IMG/VR virus record: IMGVR_UViG_2537562173_000009
Origin: a virus
Taxonomy: Duplodnaviria > Heunggongvirae > Uroviricota > Caudoviricetes
Length of the DNA stretch: 4,664 bases
Reading direction: 5' to 3' (one strand)
Shown: in pieces, positions 2,011-4,664 of the stretch
Layout: every line of letters begins with the position of its first letter
Position numbering within the stretch: position 1 is the stretch's first letter
Made by a program: the position numbers and the translations under genes
Notes under the pieces: generated by a model
Told to the model about the DNA's origin: nothing
What the model saw: the letters and a program-made list of their open reading frames with translations, nothing else
Database searches by the model: none

Positions 2011-2022
2011 TGTGGAGTGAAT

Positions 2023-4083
2023 ATGGCAGTACAGATTTCAGGCGTGCTGAAAGACGGTGCAGGAAAACCGATACAGAACTGCACCATTCAGCTCAAAGCA
2101 AAACGTAACAGCACCACGGTTGTGGTGAACACGGTGGCCTCAGAAAATCCGGATGAAGCCGGACGTTACAGCATGGATGTCGAGTATGGCCAGTACAGCG
2201 TTATCCTGCTGGTTGAAGGTTTTCCGCCTTCACATGCCGGGGCCATCACCGTGTATGAGGATTCTAAGCCGGGGACATTGAATGATTTTCTGGGCGCTGC
2301 AACAGAAGATGATGTTCGTCCGGAGGCACTGTATCGTTTTGAAAAGATGGTGGAAGAGGTGGCACGCAACGCTGAAGCCGCCTCTCAGAGCGCAGCGGCA
2401 GCAAAGAAATCAGAAACAGCAGCGGCATCGTCCAGGAATGCGGCGAAAACATCAGAGACGAATGCAGGTAACAGCGCGAAAGCGGCAGCTTCTTCAAAAA
2501 CAGCCGCACAAAACGCAGCAACAGCGGCAGAACGTTCAGAGACAAATGCCCGTGCGTCAGAAGAAGCCTCCGCAGACAGTGAAGAGGCTTCCCGCCGTAA
2601 TGCAGAGTCAGCCGCTGAAAATGCCGGAGTCGCCACCACAAAAGCGCGGGAGGCCGCAGCAGACGCAACAAAGGCCGGGCAGAAAAAGGATGAGGCTCTG
2701 TCGGCAGCGACACGGGCTGAAAAGGCGGCAGACCGCGCAGAAGTCGCAGCGGAAGTGACTGCAGAGCCCTATGCGAATATAGTGCCGCCGCTGCCTGATG
2801 TGTGGATACCGTTTAACGATTCACTGGATATGATTGCGGGTTTTTCTCCGGGCTATAAAAAAATAGCTATTGGTGACGATGTGGTTCAGGTCGCCAGTGA
2901 TAAACAGGTTAATTTCAGTCGCGCATCAACGGCAACATATATCAACAAATCTGGCGAACTGAAAACGGCGGAAATTAATGAGCCGCGATTTGAGTGTGAT
3001 GGCCTGCTTATTGAGGGACAAAGAACGAACTACATGCTCAATTCGGAAAGTCCAGCCAGCTGGGGGAAGTCATCAAACATGGATGTGCCCGAAACCGGGA
3101 CAGATAGTTTTGGTTTTACTTATGGAAAGTTTGTCTGCAACGATTCTCTGGTTGGGCAAACTTCGGCTATTAATATGGCATCAATTGCTGCAACAAAGTC
3201 AGTTGATGTCTCAGGCGATAACAAGTACGTGACAACCTCATGCCGTTTTAAAACAGAACGACAGGTAAGGTTACGTATACGGTTTGATAAGTATGATGGT
3301 AGTGCAACAACTTTTCTTGGCGATGCGTACATTGATACGCAAACGCTTGAAATTAATATGACAGGTGGGGCTGCCGGCAGAATTACGGCACGAGTCAGGA
3401 AGGATAAGACCACAGGCTGGATTTTTGCAGAGGCAACGATTCAGGCAATTGATGGTGAGTTAAAAATAGGCTCTCAGATACAGTATTCTCCTGAGCGGGG
3501 TGGGGCAACAGTATCTGGTGACTATATTTATCTTGCCACCCCACAAGTAGAGAATGGGCCGTGTGTATCATCATTTATTATTTCAGGAGGCAGCGCAACG
3601 ACAAGAGCCAGTGATTTGGTTAGTATCCCCACCAGAAATAATCTTTATAAGTTACCATTTACTTTTTTACTTGAGATTCATAAAAACTGGGATATTGCAC
3701 CAAACGCCGCACCCCGCGTGTGGGATATAGCAGCAGCCAATACCGGGCAATCAGCAATTGCAGCAATCAACAGAGGTAGTGGTAAGTTATATATGAGTCT
3801 GTCAAACCCTTCAGGCTTGTATGTTAATAGCGCAGCGACAGATGTATTTGCAGAGAAAACCACATTTGGATGTATTGCAAAAGCTGATGGTCACTTTCAT
3901 GTGGTGACAAATGGTAAAGCGGTTAATGAAGTTTATTGTGAATATAATGGTGTGACCGCTGATAAAAATATCCGATTTGGAGGGCAGACGAATACTGGAG
4001 AACGACATCTGTTTGGCCATATTCGCAATTTCCGCATATGGCATAAAGAATTAAATGACAGGCAATTAAAAGAGGTCGTATGA
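2023..4083 (+). CDS. stf: Side tail fibre protein (lambda Stf family N-terminus, Ala/Ser-rich shaft, divergent C-terminal receptor-binding domain).
   Basis: It is a long ORF, open from GTG at 2017. The ATG at 2023 is the preferred start: it is preceded by GGAG (2014-2017) with a 5-nt spacer and gives 'MAVQISGVLKDGAGKPIQNCTIQLKAKRNSTTVVVNTVASENPDEAGRYSMDVEYGQYSVILLVEGFPPSHAGAITVYEDSKPGTLNDFL', which is near-identical in pattern to the lambda Stf N-terminus as I recall it. The low-complexity Ala/Ser/Thr/Glu shaft is typical of side tail fibres. The stop is TGA at 4081-4083. Confidence 0.9.
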   Translation: MAVQISGVLKDGAGKPIQNCTIQLKAKRNSTTVVVNTVASENPDEAGRYSMDVEYGQYSVILLVEGFPPSHAGAITVYEDSKPGTLNDFLGAATEDDVRPEALYRFEKMVEEVARNAEAASQSAAAAKKSETAAASSRNAAKTSETNAGNSAKAAASSKTAAQNAATAAERSETNARASEEASADSEEASRRNAESAAENAGVATTKAREAAADATKAGQKKDEALSAATRAEKAADRAEVAAEVTAEPYANIVPPLPDVWIPFNDSLDMIAGFSPGYKKIAIGDDVVQVASDKQVNFSRASTATYINKSGELKTAEINEPRFECDGLLIEGQRTNYMLNSESPASWGKSSNMDVPETGTDSFGFTYGKFVCNDSLVGQTSAINMASIAATKSVDVSGDNKYVTTSCRFKTERQVRLRIRFDKYDGSATTFLGDAYIDTQTLEINMTGGAAGRITARVRKDKTTGWIFAEATIQAIDGELKIGSQIQYSPERGGATVSGDYIYLATPQVENGPCVSSFIISGGSATTRASDLVSIPTRNNLYKLPFTFLLEIHKNWDIAPNAAPRVWDIAAANTGQSAIAAINRGSGKLYMSLSNPSGLYVNSAATDVFAEKTTFGCIAKADGHFHVVTNGKAVNEVYCEYNGVTADKNIRFGGQTNTGERHLFGHIRNFRIWHKELNDRQLKEVV
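2365..2760 (+). repeat. Low-complexity Ala/Ser/Glu/Thr-rich repetitive coding segment (fibre shaft) inside stf.
   Basis: The translation is 'RNAEAASQSAAAAKKSETAAASSRNAAKTSETNAGNSAKAAASSKTAAQNAATAAERSETNARASEEASADSEEASRRNAESAAENAGVATTKAREAAADATKAGQKKDEALSAATRAEKAADRAEVAAEV'. Short motifs recur (SETNA twice, AA(K/E)(T/R)SETNA), and the DNA is rich in gcagc/gcggc repeats. This generates spurious ORFs on both strands. Confidence 0.8.
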
Positions 4084-4358
4084 AAGATTTAACTTTGAAG
4101 TTTCATGACAAACTGCAGTTTAAGGCCTTCCTGTCATCTCTTGACTGGGAGGAGGATGAAGACCTCCAGAATAAACTGTTAGTCGATGAAATTGGTTTCA
4201 CCTACACAGAAACAGGGGTAACAGAAGAGGGAGAACCTGTCTGTGTCCGGAATGACGGTTATTTTGTCAACATTCGCATTCTTGATGACTTGTTTGATGT
4301 TTCTGTATTCTCTGATTATGTCGTGGAGCTGGAAACACCGCTTCGGGAATGGAGCTGA
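4080..4358 (+). CDS. Hypothetical small acidic protein (92 aa), translationally coupled to stf. Possibly a fibre-tip accessory or assembly factor; it is not recognisably Tfa.
   Basis: Its ATG (4080-4082) overlaps the stf stop TGA (4081-4083) as ATGA. An SD-like AAAGAGG lies at 4069-4075. The ORF is very Asp/Glu-rich ('DWEEDEDLQNKLLVDEIGFTYTETGVTEEGEPV...') with no hydrophobic segment. It shares the low GC (~35-42% by hand count) of the stf 3' domain. Confidence 0.65.
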   Translation: MKDLTLKFHDKLQFKAFLSSLDWEEDEDLQNKLLVDEIGFTYTETGVTEEGEPVCVRNDGYFVNIRILDDLFDVSVFSDYVVELETPLREWS

Positions 4359-4370
4359 AAGGAGGAAATA

Positions 4371-4664
4371 ATGGATATAAGCCCCTTACTTCATGCGCTT
4401 TGTGCTGTGGCTGCGCAGATACTGGTTGGTCTTTTTACCGGAAACTGGGCTTACGGAGCGATAGCCGGTTGTACGTTCTTCATTGCGCGTGAACATACCC
4501 AGGCAGAATATCGCTGGATTGAAATGTTCGGGCATGGCAAGCGAATGAATATGCCGTGGTGGGGCGGTTTTGATCCGCGAGCTTGGGATGTGGCAAGCCT
4601 GATGGATTTTGCTGTGCCGGTGGTGGCGTGTCTGCTGGTCTGGCTGTTGGTTAATCGTGGGTGA
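4371..4664 (+). CDS. Hypothetical small membrane protein (97 aa, two predicted transmembrane helices). Candidate moron / accessory gene.
   Basis: There is a strong SD, AAAGGAGG (4358-4365), with a 5-nt spacer to the ATG at 4371. The stop is TGA at 4662-4664. Hydrophobic stretches are 'LLHALCAVAAQILVGLFTGNWAYGAIAGCTFFIA' and 'LMDFAVPVVACLLVWLLV', flanking a Trp-rich loop 'EHTQAEYRWIEMFGHGKRMNMPWWGGFDPRAWD'. GC returns to about 53-60%. Confidence 0.7.
   Translation: MDISPLLHALCAVAAQILVGLFTGNWAYGAIAGCTFFIAREHTQAEYRWIEMFGHGKRMNMPWWGGFDPRAWDVASLMDFAVPVVACLLVWLLVNRG

Follow-up and report, generated by a model that had tools for sequence, protein, structure and literature searches.

Small integral proteins of the inner membrane that act in superinfection exclusion are known from several phages, with HK97 gp15, T4 Imm and P22 SieA as examples that are each the product of a single gene. 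Cor (from phi80, N15 and HK022) and Llp from T5 are outer-membrane-directed lipoproteins specific for FhuA, and their genes occupy a position beside receptor-binding genes comparable to that of the gene described here. Seroconversion cassettes, such as P22 gtrABC, epsilon15 genes 21/22 and D3 iap, adjoin tailspike genes, and holin genes are placed after the fibre genes in T7 (17.5) and T4 (t). Besides, lom and bor are the classic morons of lambdoid phages, the definition of a moron reportedly being that of Juhala and Hendrix. The locus examined here, at the end of a stretch of tailed-phage DNA of 4,664 nucleotides (the window), had been described in an earlier note as a small two-helix membrane protein gene in the classic moron position, with exclusion, receptor masking and toxin-like activity as candidate functions.

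Four features lie on the + strand of the window. Upstream lies the 3' portion of J, the gene for the central tail fibre; the side tail fibre gene (2017..4083, 688 aa, PHROG 1419), identified from the ORF list and from domain and profile matches, combines an N-terminal PF08400 domain with a ConA/Laminin_G_3-like C-terminal tip; the phage 21 annotation starts this coding sequence at window position 2023. The stop codon of the fibre gene is overlapped (ATGA) by the ATG of an acidic 92-aa ORF (4080..4358, assigned to PHROG 1361 by profile match), after which a spacing of 12 nt leads to the 97-aa membrane-protein coding sequence (4371..4664). This ORF begins with ATG, equals CPT_21_24 (UMO75439.1) of phage 21 and has its stop codon exactly at the end of the window. 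Its Shine-Dalgarno sequence AGGAGG (4360..4365), read directly and annotated as ribosome_binding_site in phage 21, is located 5 nt 5' of the ATG and 2 nt past the stop of the 92-aa ORF, and thus both the ORF and the strong ribosome-binding site described previously are present.

Between position 881 and the end of the window, identity to Escherichia phage 21 (OL657228) amounts to 99.95%, and positions 4000-4664 show 100% identity to both phage 21 and ev017. Beyond the window, the phage 21 genome continues with sitDCBA, encoded on the other strand, and then with attP and int, and this sit operon (sitABCD), just past the window, is the obvious autonomous cargo of the region. The GC content is 53.1% in the 97-aa gene, 42.7% in the 92-aa ORF and 43.2% in the fibre tip, so the reported rise relative to the upstream genes is real; the earlier note put it at about 55%. 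Considering that the phage 21 genome averages 51% GC (PMC9119081), the 97-aa gene is close to the phage average and the cassette formed by the fibre tip and the 92-aa ORF is the deviating part. No Rfam RNA family was detected within the window.

The location after the fibre genes agrees with a classic moron position, but the promoter and terminator of its own that a moron would carry were not found. A consensus scan of 1.5 kb around the 97-aa gene gave no hit for a sigma-70-like promoter on the + strand or for an intrinsic terminator near the gene, and the 92-nt intergenic region before the convergent sitD folds no better than shuffled sequences (z = -0.08). Because the consensus method is crude and weak or non-sigma-70 promoters could escape it, the absence of a promoter counts as a weak negative. 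Given these results and the tight packing behind the fibre operon, the gene is not regarded as an autonomous moron unit; in phage 21 it closes the tail-fibre transcription unit, in which the side tail fibre gene is an upstream member. From this last place, the short spacing and the separate ribosome-binding site, production from the late transcript is expected, and the operon embedding without a detectable promoter predicts late expression, with little product in the lysogen. The coupling to late genes counts against a protective reading and fits a lytic-cycle role better.

Such a lytic-cycle role would make the protein an accessory produced together with the tail fibres, acting in lysis timing, in late stabilisation of the membrane or in superinfection exclusion confined to lytic growth. 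We regard it as improbable, despite the packing behind late genes without promoter or terminator, the location amid structural genes in HP1-like phages, phiHAP-1 and Carin-5, the placement immediately before the LydA holin gene in a P1-like element and the precedent of the holin genes 17.5 and t. Phage-free orphan copies on chromosomes are under purifying selection, two strictly virulent lineages have let the gene decay and no PHROG holin or lysis family was matched; moreover, in the P1-like element the adjacent gene already encodes a separate holin, LydA, and phage 21 carries its own lysis cassette elsewhere. The identification of the protein as a holin was rejected, as the gene lies in the tail-fibre unit rather than in a lysis cassette and the downstream ORFs of the Comamonas locus have no lysis annotation.

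The 97-aa gene is certainly real and, judging from its substitution pattern, under strong purifying selection, with dN/dS values of 0.10-0.19 at dS of 0.02-0.7; purifying selection also acts on the copies within prophages. Its product is 100% identical to the counterparts in phage 21, where it is labelled 'putative membrane protein', and ev017, and corresponds to WP_000355360.1 of Nissle 1917 and to the UniRef entry named 'Ybl63' (E2QKS6_ECOLX). The protein matches phrog_1443 with E = 2.4e-58, residues 1-96 aligning to profile positions 1-96 of 97, and the only other PHROG match is phrog_34165; neither has an assigned function. Homologues form 577 clusters at 90% identity, while an exhaustive profile search returned 425 clusters at 50% identity, the best 150 of which are all stand-alone proteins of 58-146 residues (mostly about 100). 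The family is almost entirely proteobacterial, ranging from Alpha- to Deltaproteobacteria and including temperate phages of at least four proteobacterial classes, and its spread is sporadic, since it is found in some species only within each genus.

In Escherichia coli, copies with at least roughly 85% nucleotide identity were counted in 1903 of the 5426 complete genomes (35%). They occupy 3932 places; positive genomes carry a median of 2 and a maximum of 7, and essentially all of the copies lie in prophages. The type strain ATCC 11775 and Nissle 1917 are among the carriers, and the records listed all annotate the gene as 'hypothetical protein'. Altogether, the gene is already annotated and functionally blank, and is uncharacterised within a known class of phage accessory membrane proteins.

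Database searches with the protein gave nothing above threshold in Pfam, NCBIfam or PADLOC, and the same was true of Pfam searches with 27 relatives. Homology to structural tail or assembly proteins, a possibility raised in the earlier note, was looked for in Pfam, NCBIfam and PHROG without any such match, and neither the tail fibre chaperone families (Tfa, gp38 and intramolecular-chaperone) nor structural families matched the protein. A weak hit to the PhoR N-terminal domain was discarded as hydrophobic-helix noise (E = 0.037; 14.9 bits vs a cut-off of 27.1), and the family profile had no match among PDB sequences. No PADLOC defence model is related to the protein, and this lack of a model, together with the lack of defence-island neighbours, counts against a protective reading. 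The searchable literature held nothing relevant on Ybl63, WP_000355360, WP_000654167, UMO75439 or E2QKS6, and the phage 21 genome announcement offers no function for the protein (PMC9119081). In the parts of the P2/P4 hotspot papers covered by text searches, neither this locus nor a small membrane protein beside fibre genes is mentioned. Tai tail-assembly-inhibition systems, which consist of soluble proteins at other loci, and the svsR sRNA of the phage-21-like prophage NC-SV, which maps to the cI 3' end, were set aside.

AlphaFold2 models the protein (pLDDT 93.5) with three helices, at residues 4-23, 26-53 and 74-96, rather than with the two hydrophobic helices proposed from the sequence. The N-terminal hydrophobic stretch spans 36 residues and is broken at G24-N25, which in the light of the three helices makes it a hairpin. 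The product is thus predicted to be a three-helix integral membrane protein, and the helices together with the hydropathy bear out its description as a small membrane protein; the Trp/Arg-rich segment noticed earlier, YRWIEMFGHGKRMNMPWWGGFDPRAWD, is also there as residues 47-73. Helix 1 (aa 4-23; 4380..4439), helix 3 (aa 74-96; 4590..4658) and the segment connecting helices 2 and 3 were delimited by AlphaFold2, conservation and hydropathy, all features being on the + strand. In an alignment of 115 diverse members, the hydrophobic helix 1 contains H8 (92% conserved) and Q16 (65%), and the equally hydrophobic helix 3 contains D79 (79%) and P83 (97%). The first half of helix 2 (aa 26-39; 4446..4487), hydrophobic by hydropathy and part of the modelled helix 26-53, has a mean Kyte-Doolittle value of 1.47 in the family and pairs with helix 1 as a hairpin over the G24-N25 turn.

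The second half of helix 2 (aa 40-53, REHTQAEYRWIEMF; 4488..4529) is polar and conserved in three alignments, with R40 and E41 at 99%, Q44, A45 and E46 at 97%, Y47 at 81%, R48 at 88% and I50 at 82%. It is followed by the aromatic and Arg-rich connecting segment (aa 54-73, GHGKRMNMPWWGGFDPRAWD; 4530..4589), in which R58 (87%), P62 (76%) and W72 (96%) stand out. The family signature can be written as H8...R40-E41-x2-Q-x-E-Y-R...W72...D79-x3-P83. Twenty-seven positions do not vary among 27 members whose identity to the phage 21 protein is 57-93%, and the core from H8 to P83 is retained in distant phage members that are only 31-34% identical to it. According to the helix registers, H8, R40/E41 and D79 would lie at equal depth near one membrane face, and the near-invariant signature has the appearance of a site that binds or acts on one conserved target, not of a fast-evolving receptor mask. 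The cysteines were considered as metal ligands and rejected, as C34 and C87 are not conserved family-wide.

Orientation is important for this protein, as it places the conserved cluster on either the cytoplasmic or the periplasmic side. In the phage 21 protein the K+R counts are 0 in the N-tail, 0 in the turn, 5 in the loop and 1 in the C-tail, so that the positive-inside rule applied to three helices predicts N-in, loop-in and C-out, whereas the GenBank note reports two TMDs by TMHMM with N-in/C-in and, in addition, a SignalP signal peptide. Chromosomal orthologues carry 1-3 K/R in the turn between helices 1 and 2 and 2-6 in a longer C-tail, which makes that face as positive as the loop, and a firm positive-inside orientation was abandoned for this reason.

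Across the phage contexts of the family, the 97-aa gene adjoins receptor-binding genes in tail architectures of at least eight unrelated kinds, directly after them and on the same strand in many. In lambdoid siphophages the fibre gene, the 92-aa ORF and the 97-aa gene follow each other on the same strand, and in a Comamonas siphophage the homologue comes after a gene for a 2520-aa J-like protein and a 72-aa ORF. The gene overlaps or abuts the fibre stop in HP1-like myophages (Aeromonas, Leclercia), with a baseplate gene three genes downstream, and P2-like E. coli prophages have the order fibre, 75-aa ORF, 97-aa gene, invertase and sheath. A P1-like element carries two tandem cassettes, each of a fibre tip and a ~94-aa ORF, followed by the 97-aa gene and the LydA holin gene. 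In Halomonas phiHAP-1 the gene overlaps a fibre-assembly gene and precedes the sheath gene, in the 155-kb Cobetia phage Carin-5 it lies between a tail-spike gene and a tail-fibre gene, and in a Desulfovibrio prophage it abuts a 935-aa fibre-like gene. The fibres upstream of the gene have no homology across these architecture groups, and in one case the preceding fibre carries its own Peptidase_S74 chaperone domain.

The linkage to fibre genes is accompanied by independence from the kind of fibre. Within E. coli, 97-aa proteins that are 96-97% identical are encoded beside fibre tips only 41% identical to that of phage 21, and the 92-aa ORF is not detectable in these loci. This ORF accompanies homologous fibre tips in both lambdoid and P1-like loci and is missing from most other contexts of the 97-aa gene, which makes it the partner of the phage-21-type tip and not of the 97-aa protein. 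In Nissle 1917 the fibre gene is split and both the 92-aa ORF and the 97-aa gene are intact. The 97-aa protein is independent of the fibre-tip type, without co-variation. The receptor-masking function proposed previously, taken here as that of a factor of the cor, llp, lom or bor type that fits the adjacent fibre and masks, or excludes by way of, its receptor, is for this reason very unlikely. The location directly after receptor-binding genes, as for cor and llp, speaks for it. Against it, the genes that precede the 97-aa gene encode unrelated types of fibre, spike and J protein; conservation reaches from Alpha- to Deltaproteobacteria, groups without common receptors; and the product, an integral membrane protein made of helices, lacks a lipobox and outer-membrane features and has a non-conserved C11.

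Two virulent phage lineages have nothing but decayed fragments of the gene. Kuttervirus has a decayed copy in which residues ~1-35 are followed by a stop, and in the HC6 group only the C-terminal half remains, in a broken frame; both remnants sit beside spike or fibre genes. Taken together, the contexts imply that recombination drags the gene along with receptor-binding cassettes and that at least some strictly lytic phages let it decay. Intact divergent homologues are present in the large phages Carin-5 and Aeromonas phage PS1, an observation that counts against a protective reading.

A survey of chromosomal contexts, with one genome per species, found recognisable tail modules at a minority of the loci and many copies beside housekeeping genes. 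Orphan copies occupy fixed chromosomal loci in Aeromonas, Leclercia, Silvania and Sphingomonas. Five Aeromonas species share the syntenic order Pirin, the gene, RIO1 and two LpxL/M-like genes, with omega of 0.15-0.20 in all informative species pairs (dS 0.12-0.68). In five Leclercia genomes the gene is near a MetE-like gene and an ABC transporter (omega 0.09-0.31), and in Silvania it is near a porin gene and PFOR (omega 0.14-0.38). In a Sphingomonas genome and at two related alphaproteobacterial MAG loci it lies directly downstream of ligA, a neighbour that was confirmed for Sphingomonas arvum, the upstream genes of the two MAG loci being homologous. These ratios indicate that selection maintains the orphan copies in the three groups with clean estimates. 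Comparison of 60 loci revealed no neighbour or operon partner conserved across groups, and the chromosomal neighbours are housekeeping genes only, with no defence-island signature. In a neighbour-joining tree of about 90 columns without support values, chromosomal clades nest among or interleave with phage-borne copies, which suggests several independent chromosomal fixations. Since single orphan copies have been repeatedly fixed under purifying selection, the protein works alone, implying that it needs no phage partner and that cells keep it under selection.

These chromosomal copies bear on several of the possible roles. A small membrane protein with a cell-housekeeping task and no phage-directed function, hitch-hiking on the most frequently recombined phage module, would explain why many species-level loci are chromosomal and beside housekeeping genes, why no conserved partner gene was found and why fragments have been carried passively into virulent phages with spike or fibre genes. 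We consider this quite unlikely in view of the sporadic distribution within genera, the multiple E. coli copies that are essentially all in prophages, the purifying selection within prophage copies, the nesting of chromosomal clades inside phage clades and the persistence of the linkage with unrelated fibre types. A membrane-acting toxin, as suggested in the earlier note, is extremely improbable, and so is a protein that forms part of the tail fibre or helps to assemble it. The protein is small and hydrophobic and its gene is translationally close to the fibre genes; however, no conserved partner gene accompanies the selected orphan copies as a potential antitoxin, the presence in about a third of E. 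coli genomes at up to seven places each fits neither role, no structural or chaperone family is similar, and cells keep the gene without any fibre gene. The protein behaves as accessory cargo and is not a tail component.

The Aeromonas locus also draws attention to the envelope, as the gene is there only one to two genes away from two LpxL/M-like lipid A acyltransferase genes. If the protein were a small membrane enzyme, or a regulator, in a pathway for envelope glycolipids (LPS, O-antigen or undecaprenyl-phosphate-linked intermediates), it would bring about lysogenic conversion, like the seroconversion genes beside tailspikes. In favour of this, the invariant cluster of His, Arg, Glu and Asp at the membrane interface is reminiscent of an active site or of a site that binds head groups. 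Moreover, the family is almost confined to Proteobacteria, which possess an outer membrane, and the gene invariably adjoins genes for proteins that in many cases bind surface glycans. Even so, this role is unlikely, because about 97 residues is very small for an enzyme, the searches made revealed no similarity to known lipid- or LPS-modifying families, the two cysteines are not conserved and the lipid A neighbourhood is found in one genus only, with ligA, an ABC transporter or a porin elsewhere.

Overall, the context points to a function of use to the cell or the lysogen and speaks against structural, toxin and holin roles. Our preferred reading, put forward tentatively and as something short of probable, is that the 97-aa protein is an autonomous inner-membrane protein, protective or envelope-modifying, that acts on one conserved target and spreads with fibre cassettes. 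The gene rides with the receptor-binding-protein cassettes that phages exchange by recombination, and the polar cluster of H8, R40-E41, Q44, E46, R48, R58, W72, D79 and P83 at one membrane face would bind or act on one conserved inner-membrane component, which may be a protein or a phosphorylated lipid-linked envelope precursor. A single conserved target, rather than a variable receptor, is suggested by the core that stays invariant down to ~31-34% identity and by the lack of co-variation with fibre tips, and the protein would accordingly not mask a particular outer-membrane receptor. The pay-off would most likely be protective, through interference with a post-adsorption step of other phages at the inner membrane or through altered envelope biogenesis. 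We infer the protective role from the distribution of the gene, and a general exclusion or protective function is a plausible candidate role. In a bolder and rather unlikely version, the family, defined by its signature, would stand for a single-gene envelope function of a new kind, with a protein that is a miniature enzyme of the membrane or that specifically inhibits some conserved machinery there. Phages would carry it, genetically linked to their receptor-binding genes, as a general and receptor-independent exclusion device, and bacteria would have domesticated it several times.

The 97-aa gene is among the commonest unannotated prophage genes in E. coli, and it unites a trio of features unusual among phage 'hypothetical' genes, namely the receptor-binding linkage across tail types, the repeated chromosomal fixation under selection and the near-invariant polar motif. 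These features make it a well-defined and cheap experimental target (294 bp, eight residues), and its abundance, invariant motif and repeated domestication justify a moderate interest. If the protein proves to be an exclusion or envelope-modifying factor, this would affect how host range is predicted and phage therapy designed for many E. coli strains, and a general exclusion device would amount to an unrecognised and very widespread phage-derived protection in a third of the complete E. coli genomes. If it turns out to be ordinary, the family can be named and struck from the lists of candidate toxin and structural genes.

Compared with the systems described so far, the 97-aa protein belongs without difference to the family of PHROG 1443, Ybl63 and CPT_21_24, which has no function, Pfam model or literature. 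With the lom and bor morons the gene shares the character of non-essential-looking extra DNA that ends the late operon and differs in base composition from its immediate neighbours; it differs from them in that no promoter or terminator of its own was detected and in that it lies amid structural genes in several phages. With the holins T7 gp17.5, T4 t and P1 LydA it shares the coding of a small membrane protein after fibre genes, and in the P1-like element it is the immediate upstream neighbour of lydA. Nevertheless, that element has a separate holin, the protein has no holin PHROG match, and the orphan chromosomal copies maintained by selection make a holin function implausible.

The likeness to Cor and Llp is limited to the place beside a receptor-binding gene, as the 97-aa protein is a predicted three-helix integral protein with no lipobox and no tip co-variation. 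Its N-terminus (MD...) has no positive n-region, and C11, the only early cysteine, is preceded by H-A-L and replaced by I, V or L in most relatives. The seroconversion cassettes represent the shared type of a cargo adjacent to a receptor-binding gene and acting in the inner membrane on surface polysaccharide; the 97-aa protein is without homology to them and is encoded by a single gene with no glycosyltransferase or polymerase nearby. With HK97 gp15, T4 Imm and P22 SieA the protein has in common that it is a small phage integral inner-membrane protein, accessory to virion production. Neither its sequence nor profile comparison links it to an annotated PHROG exclusion family, and it differs in that its family is far more conserved across hosts and is linked to fibre genes. 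Exclusion of the kind exerted by gp15, Imm and SieA is the job that we think most likely for the 97-aa protein.

The tip of the side tail fibre and the acidic partner protein of about 92-95 aa that follows it (PHROG 1361) form a mobile cassette of low GC content (approximately 43%), which occupies window positions 2791-4083 (within the fibre gene) together with the partner ORF at 4080-4358 on the plus strand and is common to lambdoid and P1-like elements. Two such cassettes are arranged in tandem on the same strand in a P1-like element of Leclercia (L157, 2892-6888). More divergent homologues of the tip were also found upstream of the membrane-protein gene (97 aa, window 4371-4664) in the Comamonas, Pantoea and Chelativorans loci, and in one of these loci the tip homologue is accompanied by a partner of about 95 aa. 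The PHROG 1361 partner may be regarded as a candidate fibre chaperone.

A GTG codon at 2017 is the first codon of the fibre gene in the mechanical ORF call, and the phage 21 annotation places the gene's start at the ATG at window position 2023, with a ribosome-binding site at 2014-2017. In addition, several long ORFs lie on both strands within 2264-2758, for example 2264-2713 on the minus strand and 2282-2758 on the plus strand. They overlap the part of the fibre gene that encodes aa ~110-250, a low-complexity segment rich in Ala, Glu and Lys, and look like by-products of biased composition and not genes.

E. coli Nissle 1917 (L165, 8024-10084) has its side tail fibre gene in two pieces: the N-terminal part is a pseudogene, and a second CDS is annotated as 'phage head spike fiber domain'. 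The 92-aa ORF, the 97-aa ORF and the sitABCD operon are intact in this strain. In P2-like E. coli prophages (L160-L163, 7391-7957), a serine DNA invertase gene (Resolvase and HTH_7 domains) lies directly 3' of the membrane-protein gene, and no oppositely oriented alternative fibre cassette was visible in the gene table of these four loci.

Fewer than 400 nt follow the membrane-protein gene in 39 of the 80 IMG/VR prophage contigs (L077-L156), and in most of these 39 (locus length 6294) the contig's last bases are the stop codon of the gene; the window ends there too, at position 4664. Prophage-calling software appears to cut at the end of this gene, which puts the sitABCD cargo as well as attP and int outside the predicted prophage.

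At the other end of the window, the gene of the central tail fibre, J, is broken (1-1964). Positions 1-880 share 97.3% identity with phage 21, the alignment having a single gap of 22 nt. At the junction near 880/881 the window lacks 200 bp of the phage 21 J gene, so that J falls into two frames that overlap, 164-907 and 882-1964. All ten complete E. coli genomes listed as best matches, among them ATCC 11775 and Nissle 1917, have these 200 bp; the window therefore stems either from a defective prophage or from an artefact of assembly.

The sole envelope-related neighbourhood seen for the membrane-protein gene is chromosomal and was found in Aeromonas, where a pair of paralogous genes for LpxL/M-like lipid A acyltransferases lies one to two genes from the homologue (L004, 9508-11645). 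This arrangement is kept in five Aeromonas species (L004 and the matching region of L011, L013, L017 and L018); the closeness of the two may be coincidental.

Unannotated, decayed fragments of the membrane-protein gene were detected in virulent phages (L169, 3480-3605; L170, 3465-3620), the carriers being Kuttervirus vB_SalA_KFSST3 and the group of HC6, 6947, ZCEC08, HC8A and PBM-3. The fragments adjoin tailspike or fibre genes in these phages and are footprints of the exchange of receptor-binding modules between temperate and virulent phages.
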